From assembly GCA_040878395.1 (NCBI GenBank), contig JBBDMI010000006.1, positions 67,145 to 131,144 of the forward strand: DNA of 64,000 bases. Reading direction: 5' to 3'. Positions 25,861 to 38,676 of the stretch are shown here, piece after piece (positions within the stretch are counted from its first letter, which is position 1; each line of letters starts with the position of its first letter). Under the pieces are notes generated by a model. It searched no databases, was not told where the DNA came from, and was given only the letters and a program-made list of their open reading frames with translations. Origin of the DNA: Candidatus Babelota bacterium. Its GTDB lineage: Bacteria > Babelota > Babeliae > Babelales > Vermiphilaceae. Made by a program: the position numbers and the translations under genes.

Positions 25861-26739
25861 CTAACGTTGAATAAATGTTGGTTCATATTCCATATGGGCT
25901 GACCTATTTTGAATCTGATACAGCGGCCACAAATCAATCTTCTTTCCATCCAAAAAACACTGCAATAATGTCTTTGGACTAAGATCTTTTCTTTTCATAT
26001 TCGAATTACCAAATTGAGTCTGGACAACATTAAGAGGTAAATTTACAATCTTTGAAGTTGCATAACAAAATCCTTGCCTCCCTCTTATTTTACTCGTAAC
26101 GCCTGCCCACATTGACTCAAGTGAATTTGGATTGTAATATCCTAACCGGTTCATATCATCTTTAATGTCTTTTTTACGATAAACAGTCATATCCACTGTG
26201 TGTGGATACCCCCAGTCTGAAATTTGTGATGCTTGATTAAAGCGCCAAATAAAGCCGTCCCCTACATCTTGTAAAGGCGGAATAGATTGAGCTCGATTCC
26301 ATGAGTAAAGATAATTTATATAAGGGGATAATCGTAAAAAACAACCATATGCATTATACTGCTCCATAGCTGAAATAGCATGATGTAAATCAATATCATC
26401 TTTTACAATAATGTCATCAACCCCAAACAATATATATTCTGCTGTTGATGCATTAAAAGCTTTAAGGGTCAATTGCTTAAAGTCTTTTGCATCCTTTCTT
26501 TGTTTTAAATAATGCACTTGTGGAAAACTTTGTTTTACTATTTCATATCCTGATTGAAAATCATCACCACTAGAACGATAAACCACAAAAACATCTCTGA
26601 GACCTGAAATAAAAACCGAGCTTGATTCTAATAATGCATAAAGTTGCATTGGACGATCAAAAGAAAAAATAATAAAATCTGCCTGATTTTGTGCATGTAT
26701 TGCAAAAAAACCGAATATACAAAATAATAATTGCTTCAT
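25861..26739 (-). CDS. unclassified GT-A-like protein with signal peptide (paralog of 32897..33787)
   Basis: DFIIFSFDRPMQLYALLES, FVVYRSS, EYILFGVDDIIVKD (DXD-like), YPHTVDMTVYRK. Collinear with 32897..33787 and with the C-terminal domains of 33799 and 37140. Confidence 0.4.
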   Translation of the reverse strand: MKQLLFCIFGFFAIHAQNQADFIIFSFDRPMQLYALLESSSVFISGLRDVFVVYRSSGDDFQSGYEIVKQSFPQVHYLKQRKDAKDFKQLTLKAFNASTAEYILFGVDDIIVKDDIDLHHAISAMEQYNAYGCFLRLSPYINYLYSWNRAQSIPPLQDVGDGFIWRFNQASQISDWGYPHTVDMTVYRKKDIKDDMNRLGYYNPNSLESMWAGVTSKIRGRQGFCYATSKIVNLPLNVVQTQFGNSNMKRKDLSPKTLLQCFLDGKKIDLWPLYQIQNRSAHMEYEPTFIQR

Positions 26740-32896: not shown

Positions 32897-33787
32897 GTGA
32901 AATTATATAATCAAAAAAGATTAATTTACAGTTTTTTGTGTATCTTTTCTTTATCCGGAGCAGCTCAGAGCTCATCGTCCGATTTAATTATATTCTCTTA
33001 CAACAGACCGTTACAACTGGAAAGTTTATTACGATCAATAGACCAACATATACAACATCTAGAAAACTTATTTATTCTTTACCGCAGTGAAGGCGACGCA
33101 TTTGAATCTGCATATGAAGAACTAAAAGAAATGTACCCTAAAGCAAATTTTTACCAACAAAGTAACCGACCAAGAAATGACTTTAAACCTATACTGCTTG
33201 ATATGTTAAATTATGCCCAAGCCGATTACATAATGTTTGCGGTCGATGATATCATCATCACAGAAAATATCGATGTAAACAAATGCGTAAACGCTTTGGA
33301 ACAAACAAATGCGTACGGATTTTATTTACGATTAGGCAAAAATATCACCTATTCTTATACATATAATATGCCATTAAAATTACCTCACTTAACACCAATA
33401 GCTGAAGATATATACGCATTTACCTTTGCCGGCAATAAAAGTTATTGGGCCTATCCCAACACTGTGGATATGACCATTTATAAAAAATCAGATATTTTGC
33501 CATTTTTGACACATGCAAATTACAGCTCACCCAATAAACTAGAATCAGTTTGGCATCAAAAAGCAAATCTACATCAACAAGGTTTATGCTTCAGTCATTC
33601 AAAAATGATCAATACACCATTGAATATTGTTCAAGAAGACTGGAATAATAAACATGATGATCTGTATACACCGGAAGAACTTTTAAGCTTTTGGCAACAA
33701 GGACTTAGGATTGATATTAACGATGTGTACAACATTGATAACAATACGGCCCACATATCATATCATCCGATATTCATAAAAAAATAA
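32897..33787 (+). CDS. unclassified GT-A-like protein with signal peptide (paralog of 25861..26739)
   Basis: GTG start with GAGGA 6 nt upstream. DLIIFSYNRPLQLESLLRS, FILYRSEG, DYIMFAVDDIIITE, YPNTVDMTIYKK. Confidence 0.4.
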   Translation: MKLYNQKRLIYSFLCIFSLSGAAQSSSSDLIIFSYNRPLQLESLLRSIDQHIQHLENLFILYRSEGDAFESAYEELKEMYPKANFYQQSNRPRNDFKPILLDMLNYAQADYIMFAVDDIIITENIDVNKCVNALEQTNAYGFYLRLGKNITYSYTYNMPLKLPHLTPIAEDIYAFTFAGNKSYWAYPNTVDMTIYKKSDILPFLTHANYSSPNKLESVWHQKANLHQQGLCFSHSKMINTPLNIVQEDWNNKHDDLYTPEELLSFWQQGLRIDINDVYNIDNNTAHISYHPIFIKK

Positions 33788-33798
33788 AGGTGTAAAAA

Positions 33799-35220
33799 AT
33801 GAAAAACTATATAACAATTGTCACACTGTTTTTTTGCAGTGCCTTATATACACAAGCAGAAAAGCATATCACTGTTATTATTCCATCGTATAATAACGCC
33901 AGCTGCTATAATAAAAATTTAGATTCTGTCTTTTCACAAAATTATCATAACTACAATATAATCTACATTGATGATGCTTCGCCTGACGGGACAGGCAATC
34001 TGGTTACATCATATATACAACATCATCCCTTGCGTAAAAAAATAAAACTGATTAAAAACCAATATAACCGCAAAGCATTAGCAAATATATATAAGACGGT
34101 CCACATGTGCAATGACAATGACCTAATAGTAATTCTTGATGGAGATGATTGGTTTGCACATAATAATGCATTAACCTTCATTAATAATCTTTTTTTTAAT
34201 AATGACATTTGGCTTGCTTATGGACAATATATCAATGTTCCTGAACAACTAGCTAAACAACAAAATATCCCGGTATTCGGCTATGCAAAGCCTACACCCG
34301 AACACCTGATAGAATCTGGAGACTATAGAAATCATCCAGGTTGGTATTGGTCAGGTCTGCGCATGTTTTACGCCGGACTATTCAAGCAAATTCAATTCAA
34401 AGATTTTATTTTGCCATACAATCCATTTAAAGGGAAGTTCTTTCCTACAAGCTATGATGGCGCAATTATGTATCCAATGCTTGAAATGTGTAGCACCCAC
34501 TTTGCACATATTCCTGAAATACTATTGCATCGCAATATAGATACTCCACTCAATGATTTCAAAGTTAATCGAAACTTACAACGTTTATGTGGCAAAGCTT
34601 TGCGCACATTCAAACCATACAGTCAATTAAAAGAAATTCCACAGAAAGATAACAATGCAACTGCAGAGCTTATTATTATACCAAATGGAAATAATGACAT
34701 GCGTACTGTACTAGGAAAAATAAAATCAAATGATTTTGCACAAATGCATATTCTACATACACCAACAAGAAAAAATCTACCCGCTTATTTGGCAATGAAA
34801 CGCAGTTATCAACTGAAACCAATAACACCACAAAAAAATATCATGCAACATGTACGTGATATATGCTCAAAAAGTACATGTTCACATATTTTAATTGCAG
34901 ACAATAGTTTAACCAAGTTTTCAGTGCCAACTGCATTAAAACTACTCGAGCAACTTCCTGCTGATATGCTCTTATGTGATAATGAACATATCGACAGATC
35001 AGTACCCATTAAAAATTTGCCACTGGAACACCTGGATGACACTATCTATGGTTTTTGCACAGAATATTACCCCATAGAAGAACTGCATCACATAAGTGGT
35101 TTATACAGAAAAGATTTCTTGCAAACCTGCTTGGATAAAGCACAGAACATTCATGAACTAAAAACATTAATAAACGATTATCTTAATGCACAAAACAATG
35201 TAGTCCTGTGTACATTATAG
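33799..35220 (+). CDS. two-domain glycosyltransferase: N-terminal GT2 plus C-terminal divergent GT-A-like domain; signal peptide
   Basis: ITVIIPSYNNAS, YNIIYIDDASPDGT, VILDGDDWFAHNN, SGLRMFYAGLFKQ. The C-terminal ~190 aa (ELIIIPNGNNDM.., SHILIADNSLTKF) is collinear with the stand-alone 292/296-aa proteins but lacks their VDD motif. Confidence 0.7.
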   Translation: MKNYITIVTLFFCSALYTQAEKHITVIIPSYNNASCYNKNLDSVFSQNYHNYNIIYIDDASPDGTGNLVTSYIQHHPLRKKIKLIKNQYNRKALANIYKTVHMCNDNDLIVILDGDDWFAHNNALTFINNLFFNNDIWLAYGQYINVPEQLAKQQNIPVFGYAKPTPEHLIESGDYRNHPGWYWSGLRMFYAGLFKQIQFKDFILPYNPFKGKFFPTSYDGAIMYPMLEMCSTHFAHIPEILLHRNIDTPLNDFKVNRNLQRLCGKALRTFKPYSQLKEIPQKDNNATAELIIIPNGNNDMRTVLGKIKSNDFAQMHILHTPTRKNLPAYLAMKRSYQLKPITPQKNIMQHVRDICSKSTCSHILIADNSLTKFSVPTALKLLEQLPADMLLCDNEHIDRSVPIKNLPLEHLDDTIYGFCTEYYPIEELHHISGLYRKDFLQTCLDKAQNIHELKTLINDYLNAQNNVVLCTL

Positions 35221-36144
35221 TTATTGCTCAAATGCTTCAGGAATCAACCAACTGCCGGCCCAATGATGGACGGCAAATGATTCCGGTTGTATCCAACTTG
35301 AACGTGTAGTGTTTTTTTGGTGATAGCCACATGGATAAAAAAAGCTTGTAGGAAATGCAATATCAACACTATCATCTATTCCTGCTCGTGCAATAAATGC
35401 ACGACTAAAATGAATAGGGCCGCTACGAATAACGATTGGACCAAATCCACGATCTCGTTCAATAGTTTGCACTGCATATTTTAAAATTTCATGCCCAGGA
35501 TGTGCAGCAAACAATGCAGCGCCCAATTGAGCATAATTGGTGTCTAATGGTTGAATGCCAGTATAAAAATCGTATGCATGATGCAATGGATCAAGCGGTT
35601 TTAAACATTCAAAATCACAATCGATATACACGCCACCAATGCGATACACAATCTCATACTTTATAATATCCGATTTTTCGCCATAATTACGTGATGCGTC
35701 GAAAAACTTACGATTATCAAATTGCAATGGTGCAACATCAACAACAATATAACGCTCATCGGTCAAAAGAAGCAGATTTTGTAACTCTTGCCATGAATGC
35801 ACAACAATGCCACGTGGATCATTATCTATGCGGTCGGTCCACAGTACAAATCTCCAATCGGGATGCATATCTTCCCATGTTTTACGCAATGCTTTATCTT
35901 CTTGAGACAATGGACGCCCGAACCATACATGATGCATAATTTTGGGTATTTTTTCATATTCTTGAAACGTAACTTGATCAAGATTATATGTTGCATATAA
36001 TCTTCGTGACAGAGGCAACAGTTCTTGTATTATTGGCAGCTCTTGAAATTGATAACTATCAATTTGCATTGAAGCATCAAAATCAATTGCTGCATACGCT
36101 TGAATAAAAACAAAAATTGTTATAAAAAATATATTTTTTTTCAT
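35221..36144 (-). CDS. GT32-family glycosyltransferase with signal peptide
   Basis: IPKIMHHVWFGRPLS, WRFVLWTD, GEKSDIIKYEIVYRIGGVYIDCDFECLKPL. Its stop codon abuts the stop of the convergent 33799..35220. Confidence 0.75.
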   Translation of the reverse strand: MKKNIFFITIFVFIQAYAAIDFDASMQIDSYQFQELPIIQELLPLSRRLYATYNLDQVTFQEYEKIPKIMHHVWFGRPLSQEDKALRKTWEDMHPDWRFVLWTDRIDNDPRGIVVHSWQELQNLLLLTDERYIVVDVAPLQFDNRKFFDASRNYGEKSDIIKYEIVYRIGGVYIDCDFECLKPLDPLHHAYDFYTGIQPLDTNYAQLGAALFAAHPGHEILKYAVQTIERDRGFGPIVIRSGPIHFSRAFIARAGIDDSVDIAFPTSFFYPCGYHQKNTTRSSWIQPESFAVHHWAGSWLIPEAFEQ

Positions 36145-37139: not shown

Positions 37140-38666
37140 TTATATTTTTACCAAATAATTTCCCTGCTGATTAACTTTATAACCTAACTTAAGCAATGGT
37201 GCCAGAAAATCCGGAACTTTCTTTCGTTTATGTACATGTGATCGCTTACAACACAAACCCATTTGATTTAGATCAACAAAACTCATATTCAATAAACGAT
37301 AAAGATCATTAAAGTTTTGACAGCAGGCTCCATCTAATATTTTTTTAATATCAGATTTCCTTACCAGATTCATGGTCCATGCAAATGGTTGACGCCAATC
37401 AAGCTCTGCTTGATTAAATTGCCAAGCATAAAAACCATCCGGTGTTTGAGTAAATAGAGGCTTTTTCATTTCACGCTTAAGTAAGTGAGTTCCGGTTACA
37501 TCATCACCAAGACTAAAATTGAATGATAATGCTTTGGTTGCCTCTAGCGCATTAACTGCATCAACTAACGGGATTGCTTCAGTTAAAACAAATGTATCAG
37601 TAGTCAACAAAAGATAACCGGAATTTTGGCACATCCAATCAAGAAACTGACACAACGAACCCTCTTGATTAAATGTTACAAAATCAACGGTAGGAAATGT
37701 TGATTGCAACGCAAGCACTGAAGATGCATGAGGTTCTTCAGTGAGAACTACGACATCCTGTATAGGTAATGCTGAATTTTCAATTTCCGTGAGAATAGCA
37801 TGCAAATCTGTAGGATTAAGTGAAAAAATAACGATATCAATGGGATCCATTGAACGTTTTGATGTTATATAATTGGTTGCAGGCAAATATTTAGGACTAC
37901 TACGAATAACGCGATCACAATGTAATTGATAAATCACATTTTTTTTATAATCATTAATTGGCGTTTCTTCATTATAAACATACAATACATCCGGAATAAA
38001 CCGCATGTGAGATCCGGCCAATTCCAACAATGGCATCATCATAGCCATATCACAAGTAATACTAAAATAATTTCCGTCATGCACAAAATCACGCAACTTT
38101 ATTTGCTTGAATAAACCTGCATAAAAAGTGCGTAAATGCGAAGTCATCCAGTCGTATTCACGAAAGACATTTCGTTGAATAACTGCACGTGGCATTTGAC
38201 GACAGTAGCCTAATTTTCCATCCGGATGACGTTCAAATTGTCCATAAGTCAACCATACCTCTGAATCCTGATACTCTTGATTCACACGTTTTAAAACATC
38301 ATTATGCGCAAGCCAATCATCACCATCAAGATGAATAACGATTTCATCATCATCACACATCCAAACCGCTTTATAATGATTGGCCATTGCACCCTGATTG
38401 GTCTCATTGCAAATCAATGTAACTTTTTCATGCAAATTATGTTTATCAATATAAGATTTCACCAAGCTACCGGTTCCATCAGGTGAACAATCGTCAATAT
38501 ATATAATACGATAATTGGTATAATTCTGAAAACATGCCGAATTTAAATTGCGCTCATACCATTGCGCATTATTATACGACGGAATCACAATGACCATCGG
38601 TTTTTCTTCATACGAAAAGAGACTAAAAGCGTGTATTAATGTGCAAAAAATAAGCGTTTTTTTCAT
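37140..38666 (-). CDS. two-domain glycosyltransferase: N-terminal GT2 plus C-terminal divergent GT-A-like domain; signal peptide
   Basis: MVIVIPSYNNAQW, YRIIYIDDCSPDGT, IHLDGDDWLAHND, SHLRTFYAGLFKQ. The C-terminal domain (IDIVIFSLNPTDLHAIL, GYLLLTTDTFVLTE) is collinear with 25861 and 32897. Start at Met3 (MKKTLIFCTL) with AAGGA spaced ~5 nt. Confidence 0.7.
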   Translation of the reverse strand: MKKTLIFCTLIHAFSLFSYEEKPMVIVIPSYNNAQWYERNLNSACFQNYTNYRIIYIDDCSPDGTGSLVKSYIDKHNLHEKVTLICNETNQGAMANHYKAVWMCDDDEIVIHLDGDDWLAHNDVLKRVNQEYQDSEVWLTYGQFERHPDGKLGYCRQMPRAVIQRNVFREYDWMTSHLRTFYAGLFKQIKLRDFVHDGNYFSITCDMAMMMPLLELAGSHMRFIPDVLYVYNEETPINDYKKNVIYQLHCDRVIRSSPKYLPATNYITSKRSMDPIDIVIFSLNPTDLHAILTEIENSALPIQDVVVLTEEPHASSVLALQSTFPTVDFVTFNQEGSLCQFLDWMCQNSGYLLLTTDTFVLTEAIPLVDAVNALEATKALSFNFSLGDDVTGTHLLKREMKKPLFTQTPDGFYAWQFNQAELDWRQPFAWTMNLVRKSDIKKILDGACCQNFNDLYRLLNMSFVDLNQMGLCCKRSHVHKRKKVPDFLAPLLKLGYKVNQQGNYLVKI

Positions 38667-38676
38667 TATCATCCTT

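Follow-up and report, generated by a model that had tools for sequence, protein, structure and literature searches.

Degenerate, probably non-catalytic copies of an unannotated GT-A-like family fused behind GT2 domains in a Babelota bacterium

Two long GT2 proteins encoded in a 64,000 nt stretch (hereafter the window) of the genome of a Candidatus Babelota bacterium, a parasite of protists, carry a C-terminal domain related to a family of stand-alone proteins (termed SA) that is encoded at the same locus. Judged by sequence, both domains belong to one degenerate clade (termed DEG). We infer, with a probability of roughly 0.65, that they no longer transfer sugar and instead serve as non-catalytic modules of active GT2 enzymes, with SA activity supplied in trans by two stand-alone proteins, S1 and S2. 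Residue losses, phylogeny and selection thus support a case in which an enzyme copy appears to have turned into a non-catalytic helper module. Such cases are of a known kind, and this one concerns an unannotated family.

Stand-alone and fused forms coexist in the window, as a first-pass annotation of this DNA had proposed. S1 (296 aa; 32897..33787, forward strand) begins with a GTG codon located 7 nt downstream of a GAGGA box, has a predicted Sec-type leader and carries an intact xDD motif (D117-D118). Its paralog S2 (292 aa; 25861..26739, reverse strand) is 40% identical to S1 across 289 aa (E 8e-69), also has an intact xDD motif and scores E 6e-118 on an SA-family HMM; an S2 ortholog is present in a same-genus genome (G053). 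The 473-aa protein (33799..35220, forward strand) consists of a leader and an intact GT2-subfamily domain (33799..34620; Pfam PF00535, E 2.5e-18) with the motifs PSYNN, IDDASPDGT and DGDDW, followed by a very divergent DEG domain (34639..35211). Likewise, the 510-aa protein (37140..38672, reverse strand) has a leader and an intact GT2-subfamily domain (37869..38672; PF00535, E 3.9e-19) followed by a DEG domain (37233..37862). PF00535 matches both long proteins in their N-terminal halves only. The motifs and coordinates that had been quoted for these four proteins are all present in their translations, and the stand-alone gene does lie directly upstream of a fused version: the S1 stop codon and the ATG of the 473-aa gene are separated by 11 nt (33788..33798, forward strand) that include an AGGTG Shine-Dalgarno-like box.

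Sequence and model evidence indicates that SA is an uncharacterised, sizeable family whose members bear export signals, are predicted to adopt a GT-A fold and share an invariant xDD motif. The family was seen in 233 stretches of species-representative genomes. It is present in half of the 151 Dependentiae genomes surveyed and is also commonly carried by environmental Chlamydiota, both of which are protist-associated bacteria. An SA HMM was built from 43 stand-alone members (294 model positions); D117 and D118 are invariant across 43 SA sequences and present in 109 of the 156 domains surveyed. The earlier statement that the family could not be placed also stands. No Pfam, NCBIfam or PHROG model matches SA above threshold, and a Pfam domain was found in none of the 539 S1 homologs. 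With PF00535, S1 reaches 19.3 bits (E 1.2e-3) against a gathering threshold of 23.3 bits and S2 gives no match; with NCBIfam TIGR04440, S1 and S2 reach 20.5 and 21.3 bits against a cut-off of 70 bits. PDB sequence searches with S1 and the SA alignment returned nothing except a single match at E 1.4, which is noise, and comparison of the SA alignment with the GT2 subfamily of the window by hhalign gave a probability of 12%. Four matches, all distant, were found in IMG/VR, and nothing relevant was found in the literature on Dependentiae glycosyltransferases.

The AF2 model of S1 (pLDDT 92.8) has the single Rossmann-like alpha/beta/alpha domain and the strand order characteristic of the GT-A superfamily, as does the model of the 473-aa C-domain. 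Foldseek comparisons of the S1 model gave generic GT-A matches only, including SpsA, TarP, POMGNT1, GnT-I and RmlT (probability 1.0, E 1e-7 to 1e-5, TM 0.45-0.49). A search of a viral fold library likewise yielded only generic GT-A folds (TM at most 0.55) and no specific giant-virus relative. The best fold matches, SpsA (PDB 1qg8) and TarP (PDB 6h4f), both at E 1e-7 and TM 0.45-0.49, resemble SA in that an xDD-type motif follows their fourth strand. However, sequence identity to them is 13-14%, and SA has an invariant Arg (in YRS) where a base-binding Asp usually sits after strand 2. The acidic motif after strand 4 is intact in S1, S2 and the SA family and is gone from both fused domains.

The first-pass annotation had proposed that the C-terminal domains of the long proteins are related to the stand-alone proteins, and profile comparisons and GT-A-like models bear this out; the evidence is direct for the 510-aa protein and runs through profiles and a bridging ortholog for the 473-aa protein. 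Residues 279-478 of the 510-aa protein are 26% identical to S1 (BLAST E 9e-18) and match S2 at E 1e-12. The SA HMM aligns with this C-domain (E 3e-24) from position 17 to position 235 of its 294; TDT stands opposite VDD in the alignment, 12 of the 19 SA-invariant residues are lost and the C-terminal ~60 residues of the family are absent. A search for related loci with the 510-aa protein as single query recovered only four loci, all via the GT2 half.

The C-domain of the 473-aa protein, in which ADN stands opposite VDD, shows no significant direct match to S1 or to the stand-alone SA HMM. Neither comparison with just the 510-aa C-domain (E 0.036) nor hhalign against the SA alignment gave a significant result, and only one close homolog was found among 5.8 billion proteins. 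These results would fit an unrelated or de novo extension whose collinearity is one of appearance, a reading that we regard as very improbable in view of four observations. An HMM of the degenerate clade (40 domains) gives this C-domain 22.8 bits (E about 1e-8), compared with 10.8 bits for the best of 2000 shuffled sequences, and the 473-aa protein is the only further open reading frame of the window that matches it. With hhalign, the C-domain matches the DEG profile at 95% probability (E 3.8e-8, 190 columns). An ortholog in genome G035 aligns with the 473-aa protein over its full length (41%), and the C-domain of this ortholog reaches 98 bits with the DEG HMM and matches the 473-aa C-domain at E 2e-4. 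Finally, the C-domain has a GT-A-like model, in which the order of secondary structure elements is collinear with that of the S1 model. The AF2 model of the 473-aa C-domain (pLDDT 75) matches the GT-A folds of TarP (E 8e-6, TMq 0.57), GalNAc-Ts and BcsA at TMq 0.52-0.60; its input alignment is rich in SA-family sequences, which biases it to the SA fold, and confidence in it is moderate. Word-indexed searches with both C-domains recovered only near-identical proteins and one at 40% identity, and the DEG clade was found only by exhaustive search of representatives. The DEG profile and the bridging ortholog, rather than a direct match, therefore indicate that the 473-aa C-domain is related to the family.

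DEG and SA profiles are clearly homologous (hhalign E 1e-74), and the fold core is kept in the DEG clade. What has been lost goes further than the replacement of VDD by TDT or ADN that had been noticed at the outset, and includes Arg145, Asp191, Asn213, Asn243 and the last ~60 residues of SA with their invariant PLNxVQ motif. Among 47 DEG domains, D118 is kept in 4%, R145, D191 and N213 in 6% each, R37 in 15%, R63 in 17% and N243 in 0%; D117 is retained in 85%. At the lost positions the replacements vary (G, T, N and E among others), the 47 domains share no newly conserved polar residue, and the residues that DEG domains do conserve belong almost entirely to the hydrophobic core, plus D117. 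In the 473-aa C-domain, the core segment T.AY.F.L.LG is deleted as well. With few exceptions, DEG domains are located behind, and fused to, members of one GT2 subfamily. In a phylogenetic tree obtained by quick search, 45-46 of the 47 domains that lost the DD pair fall on one side of a single branch (SH-aLRT 79). On this tree, the degenerate domains form a single old, mostly monophyletic clade rather than representing two local accidents.

Both C-domains are retained under purifying selection. Comparison with contigs of a sister lineage (Nei-Gojobori method, one pairwise comparison each) gave dN/dS values of 0.149 (CI 0.09-0.24) for the 473-aa C-domain and 0.17 for its GT2 half, and of 0.175 (CI 0.10-0.27) for the 510-aa C-domain and 0.23 for its GT2 half; the value for S1 is 0.084. 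In amino acid sequence, the C-domains are 84-86% identical to those of the sister lineage, and the GT2 halves 69-77%. Because purifying selection on the C-domains (dN/dS 0.15-0.18) is as strong as that on the GT2 halves, they are likely to be functional modules, and the possibility that they are decaying relics is rejected. The two domains have three attributes of pseudoenzymes: homology to a family of active type (SA activity being itself deduced from intact motifs), loss of catalytic residues with no conserved substitutes, and retention by selection. The original suggestion of a non-catalytic module, as opposed to junk, agrees with these dN/dS values, which do not exceed those of the GT2 halves, and with the lack of replacement polar residues.

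A survey of architectures covered 150 cluster representatives, of which 49 are SA alone, 41 are GT2-DEG, 36 are GT2-SA and three are SA-GT2-DEG; of 91 fused proteins, 70 have a Pfam GT2 domain. Dependentiae and Chlamydiota commonly encode intact GT2-SA fusions, and the 36 GT2-SA relatives have both acidic motifs complete by sequence. Other fusion partners of SA include GT6, GT10, GT92, FkbM and O-methyltransferase domains. Such modular fusions of glycosyltransferase and methyltransferase domains are reminiscent of chlorovirus glycan-building enzymes, of which A064R has three modules per chain, although no specific sequence or fold relationship of these to SA was found. An SA gene adjoins a co-oriented GT2-DEG gene in at least nine genomes (G139, G006, G104, G015, G107, G035, G023, G051 and that of the window), with tiny gaps or overlaps between the two. 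Adjacency of SA and DEG genes in islands packed with glycosyltransferases could in part reflect chance or tandem duplication.

The spacer between S1 and the 473-aa gene is consistent with operon-type coupling of the two genes, and the same spacing of 10-11 nt occurs in two contigs of the sister lineage (L116 and L117). The orthologous pair, SA followed by GT2-DEG, is also present in G035. Elsewhere, the three domains occur in single SA-GT2-DEG chains (P0129, P0157, P0211 and a protein of G132). The GT2 domain of the 473-aa protein is 56% identical to the middle domain of P0211, and S1 is 43% identical to the matching part, which indicates that the pair in the window, a probable two-gene operon, is the split counterpart of such chains. 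A recent frameshift or stop that separated S1 from the 473-aa gene was considered and rejected: the reading frames of the two genes differ, the 473-aa protein starts with a leader of its own, and both the sister lineage and G035 show the same split. Taken together, the architectures indicate that SA is habitually found beside one GT2 subfamily, often joined to it as GT2-SA, and that fusion and fission of these domains occurred repeatedly.

In the DEG clade, the SA copy behind GT2 has lost its second Asp, presumably a metal ligand, along with Asp191 (the candidate catalytic base), several invariant Arg, Asn and Gln positions and the C-terminal ~60 residues. The reading we favour is that this copy no longer transfers sugar and stays as a non-catalytic module of an active GT2 enzyme, with acceptor binding, regulation and scaffolding as candidate roles. 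Most likely it would hold the acceptor or product glycan or mediate oligomerisation; possibly it docks the active stand-alone SA enzyme from the adjacent gene. SA activity would be supplied in trans by S1 and S2. Two points count against this reading: some nucleotide or sugar binding could persist, with D117 kept in 85% of the clade, and the loss of catalysis is deduced from residues alone.

A few GT-A families function without a DXD motif, and the C-domains might still be active through a changed, metal-independent or single-Asp mechanism, which would make the 473-aa and 510-aa proteins bifunctional like GT2-SA. The matching selection on the two halves, the high retention of D117, the GT-A fold kept in the models and the frequency of intact bifunctional GT2-SA relatives are all in keeping with this idea. 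We nevertheless judge it unlikely, given that none of seven SA-invariant polar residues is kept in more than 17% of the DEG clade, that their substitutes differ from member to member with no new polar residue conserved clade-wide, that the C-terminal ~60 residues with PLNxVQ are absent, and that the 473-aa protein additionally lacks the core segment T.AY.F.L.LG. A different proposal is that the pseudo-domain specifically binds the stand-alone SA protein and activates or positions it, such that GT2 and SA act successively in one heterodimeric complex. This proposal is a sub-case of the favoured reading and compatible with it, and we hold it to be doubtful, though somewhat less so than retained activity. 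The co-oriented neighbours in at least nine genomes, the three-domain chains and the 11 nt coupled spacer argue for it. However, an intact SA gene is missing from about 10 of the roughly 37 DEG-bearing genomes surveyed (SA occurs without DEG in about 39), and therefore DEG cannot be an obligate SA docking site; moreover, no SA gene adjoins the 510-aa gene within the window.

Several known systems resemble the favoured reading, that of a non-catalytic module retained beside an active GT2 domain. The EXT1-EXT2 heparan sulfate co-polymerase contains inactive GT domains, Cosmc is an inactive GT31 paralog that acts as a chaperone of T-synthase, and GtfB is a non-catalytic protein that partners GtfA in glycosylating streptococcal serine-rich repeats. 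In each, as with DEG, a selected copy of a GT fold without catalytic residues is placed beside, or fused to, an active glycosyltransferase. Unlike these systems, DEG derives from SA, an unannotated GT-A family; it is bacterial, all partners bear export signals, its role as a partner is deduced, and it is also present in genomes that lack an active SA copy. A second comparison is with the E. coli K4 chondroitin polymerase K4CP (PDB 2z86/2z87) and the Pasteurella heparosan synthase (PDB 8vh7), which also carry tandem GT-A domains in one chain and whose chains give weak sequence matches to the GT2 half in the window (E 1.7e-4 to 2.9e-4). The 36 GT2-SA relatives resemble these enzymes in having, by sequence, two complete GT-A domains with complete acidic motifs. 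In contrast, the second domains of the 473-aa and 510-aa proteins lack the acidic motif and the candidate base and lie outside Pfam GT2. By analogy, GT2 and SA might form a two-activity machine that makes an alternating-sugar chain outside the cytoplasm, rebuilt in the Dependentiae lineage as an enzyme/pseudoenzyme complex in which, much as in EXT1-EXT2 or Cosmc, the dead, GT2-fused SA copy docks and activates the free SA enzyme. This is a speculative scenario to which we assign little weight; if true, it would represent a new bacterial pseudo-glycosyltransferase partnership within an undescribed GT-A family.

SA is a sizeable family with a glycosyltransferase fold and has no annotation in current domain libraries. 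When genomes are annotated, the C-terminal halves of GT2-DEG proteins should not be taken to contribute a second transferase activity. A natural series is visible, from a free enzyme to a bifunctional fusion, to a fusion with an apparently dead but selected copy, and to three-domain chains. This series helps in reading the roles of modules in the export-tagged glycan islands of protist parasites, and it may offer a tractable bacterial model for the origin and retention of pseudo-glycosyltransferase domains.

Two stand-alone proteins encoded in the window, S1 (296 aa; 32897-33787, plus strand) and its paralog S2 (292 aa; 25861-26739, minus strand), align over 289 residues with 40% identity (E 8e-69) and belong to a family here termed SA. 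The first-pass annotation had proposed that the C-terminal domains of two longer proteins with GT2 N-terminal halves are collinear with this family, and the motifs it cited are present in the translations. For the 510-aa protein (37140-38672, minus strand) the proposal holds. Specifically, residues 279-478 match S1 (26% identity, E 9e-18) and S2 (E 1e-12), and an HMM built from 43 stand-alone SA members matches the domain with E 3e-24, the match being confined to positions 17-235 of the 294-position model.

For the 473-aa protein (33799-35220, plus strand) the relationship is indirect. Its C-terminal 200 residues gave no significant match to S1 or the SA HMM, and its C-domain compared with that of the 510-aa protein alone yields a non-significant E of 0.036; the full-length alignment of the two proteins is driven by their GT2 halves. 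However, an HMM was made from 40 degenerate SA-type C-domains of other organisms (type DEG), with neither the 473-aa protein nor its close homolog among them; it covers residues 281-471 from end to end and scores 22.8 bits, compared with 10.8 bits for the best of 2000 shuffles. Among the 111 ORFs of the window, the 473-aa protein is the sole additional match to this model. The same C-domain is recovered by hhalign (95% probability, E 3.8e-8, 190 columns), and its ortholog in genome G035 (41% identity over the full length) has a C-domain that scores 98 bits on the DEG HMM and matches that of the 473-aa protein with E 2e-4. An AF2 model of the domain (pLDDT 75, pTM 0.72) follows S1 in its order of strands and helices and resembles GT-A structures (TMq 0.52-0.60), although the underlying alignment is dominated by SA-family rows and so biased towards the SA fold.

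As initially reported, the SA family could not be placed. Pfam gives S1 a sub-threshold GT2 match (19.3 bits against a threshold of 23.3) and S2 none, both reach ~21 bits on the NCBIfam model TIGR04440 (cut-off 70), and searches of PHROGs and PDB sequences returned no match. None of the 539 S1 homologs in a clustered protein collection (E <=1e-3) carries a Pfam domain, and all named ones are called 'hypothetical'. The AF2 model of S1 (pLDDT 92.8) finds SpsA, TarP, POMGNT1, GnT-I and RmlT as its best PDB matches (probability 1.0, TM 0.45-0.49); SA is thus predicted to have a GT-A fold without a close counterpart among solved structures. Across 43 SA members, 19 residues never vary, among them D117-D118, which follow the fourth strand, and R37, Q40, R63, R145, D191, P212-N213, E216 and N243. 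Judged by motif position rather than superposition, D117-D118 would be the xDD motif of GT2-type enzymes, with D191 a candidate catalytic base. We infer that S1 and S2 are active transferases, probably metal-dependent. The invariant Arg at S1 R63 (YRS after strand 2) stands where GT2-type enzymes usually have the uracil-reading Asp, and by motif position only may point to a different nucleotide-sugar donor. With an hhalign probability of 12%, SA and the neighboring GT2 subfamily are not closely related.

With the 510-aa C-domain as query, an exhaustive HMMER search yielded 323 cluster representatives, and the best 150 of these were sorted by architecture with three HMMs; fused forms predominate and are of two kinds, with intact SA or with DEG. 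SA stands alone in 49, the GT2 subfamily precedes DEG in 41, and in 36 it precedes a full-length SA with every invariant residue intact; SA-GT2 (4) and SA-GT2-DEG (3) orders are rarer. SA-SA and SA-SA-SA tandems also exist (P0136, P0127), plus a few proteins with other partners. Pfam detects GT2 in 70 of 91 fused proteins, and partners seen in single cases, in other organisms, are GT6, GT10 (fucosyltransferase), GT92, an FkbM-type methyltransferase and an O-methyltransferase. Because it is fused to GT2 and to varied other domains, SA is a mobile glycan-building module. In a maximum-likelihood tree of 156 domains (quick search), intact SA domains that stand free and those that are fused are intermixed, requiring 28 changes of state. 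In the same tree, 45-46 of the 47 domains lacking the DD pair fall on one side of a single branch (SH-aLRT 79), and therefore the degenerate type is essentially one old clade, almost always behind the GT2 subfamily, and not the product of two local decay events.

The same genes are present on metagenome contigs of a sister lineage, which permitted one pairwise Nei-Gojobori comparison per gene. The dN/dS values are 0.149 (CI 0.09-0.24) for the 473-aa C-domain and 0.171 for its GT2 half, 0.175 and 0.229 for the corresponding parts of the 510-aa protein, and 0.084 for S1. Protein identity to the sister lineage is 84-86% for the C-domains and 69-77% for the GT2 halves. The C-domains are under purifying selection rather than decaying, and therefore do something. 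Within the 510-aa protein, the GT2 half (37869-38672) has 69% amino-acid identity to sister contig L118 with dS 1.0, and the putatively dead C-domain 86% with dS 0.48. The gap in dS may reflect gene conversion between the GT2 paralogs, or else a mosaic history.

Degeneration of the acidic motif, noted in the first-pass annotation, extends across the 47 DEG domains: D118 is kept in 4%, R145, D191 and N213 in 6% each, R37 in 15%, R63 in 17% and N243 in 0%. DEG also lacks model positions 236-294, the site of the invariant PLNxVQ motif, and the replacements vary among members (G, T, N, E or others at D118). Of the 19 SA-invariant residues, 12 are gone from the 510-aa protein, and in the 473-aa protein a core segment is missing as well. 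This pattern resembles that of a pseudoenzyme. It is established that the domains are homologous, that a GT-A fold is predicted for them, that the catalytic signature has been lost, that selection on them is purifying, and that fusion or adjacency with GT2 and SA recurs; our preferred reading is a non-catalytic role for both C-domains (probability roughly 0.65). They would have ceased to transfer sugar and would instead assist the GT2 half in binding, oligomerisation or docking. In the same survey D117 and W184 are kept in 85% and 94% of DEG domains, positions conserved at >=70% are almost all hydrophobic core residues common to SA, and no new polar position reaches that level. We consider residual catalysis through a changed mechanism improbable.

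A special case of the non-catalytic role is that the C-domain docks the free SA enzyme. GT2-DEG precedes SA on the same strand in G139, G006, G104, G015 and G107, mostly with a ~15-nt gap or small overlap, and the order is reversed in G035, G023, G051 and the window. Here the 11-nt gap between the S1 stop and the 473-aa ATG was confirmed, with AGGTG inside the spacer, and this spacing suggests co-transcription. Furthermore, SA, GT2 and DEG occur in single chains (P0129, P0157, P0211 and a 777-aa ORF in G132). P0211 shares 56% identity with the 473-aa GT2 half in its middle domain, characteristic insertions included, and 43% with S1 in its N-terminal domain. These matches argue that the S1-473 pair is a split form of the three-domain protein, or the latter a fused form of the pair. 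A recent lesion as the cause of a split is ruled out by the different frames, the 473-aa protein's own leader, and conservation in the sister lineage and G035. Counted by eye, ~10 of ~37 surveyed DEG genomes lack an intact SA and ~39 genomes have SA without DEG, and the link is not obligatory. Docking of the free enzyme is a rather doubtful specific form of the non-catalytic role.

The window (G+C 31-39%) belongs to a 1.34 Mb genome, 97% complete. Those homologs of its proteins that are named belong to Candidatus Dependentiae (TM6), which live as parasites inside protist cells. Between 24 and 41 kb, glycan-building genes are tightly packed, almost all on the minus strand: seven paralogs of the GT2 subfamily, three Gly_transf_sug (PF04488) proteins, two small unannotated paralogs, a sulfotransferase-like protein, and GDP-mannose dehydratase with GDP-fucose synthase. 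Almost all proteins of this block have N-terminal hydrophobic leaders, S1, S2 and the 473-aa and 510-aa proteins included, and so probably act outside the bacterial cytoplasm. S1 and the 473-aa gene form the sole plus-strand unit within the glycosyltransferase block; G053, a genome of the same genus, has syntenic flanking genes but wholly lacks the pair. The pair resembles an accessory two-gene unit, possibly inverted or inserted. At 35218-35223 the 473-aa stop directly abuts that of the convergent gene 35221-36144, without a spacer; on sister contigs L115 and L116 the two stops are separated by a sulfotransferase-like gene plus ~300 nt.

SA is present in 76 of 151 surveyed Dependentiae genomes (51 of 96 genera), and a scan of species-representative genomes found it in 233 stretches. 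Beyond Dependentiae these include many Chlamydiota (Simkania, Parachlamydiales, Candidatus Algichlamydia, Candidatus Acheromyda) and MAGs labeled Verrucomicrobiota or Pseudomonadota, several of which may be mislabeled. The Chlamydiota representatives (loci L029, L048, L051, L057, L069, L073, L098 and others) are mostly intact GT2-SA fusions with ~40% identity to S1, which suggests exchange among protist-associated bacteria. In Dependentiae from the family to which the window belongs, the sampled loci have a free SA together with GT2-DEG. Distant relatives (23-27% identity) occur on four viral-classed IMG/VR contigs of 27-106 kb (L106-L109), one of which bears an SA-SA tandem.

A dead glycosyltransferase copy beside an active one is known from the inactive domains of EXT1-EXT2, from Cosmc with T-synthase and from GtfB with GtfA, and DEG would fit this concept. 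In architecture, the intact GT2-SA relatives come nearest to the tandem GT-A synthases K4CP and heparosan synthase, which are also weak sequence matches of the GT2 half. What is new is the SA family itself, unannotated, with no close structure and widespread in protist-associated bacteria; a well-populated clade of putative pseudo-domains; and a series leading from free enzyme to fused, to fused and apparently dead, to three-domain forms.
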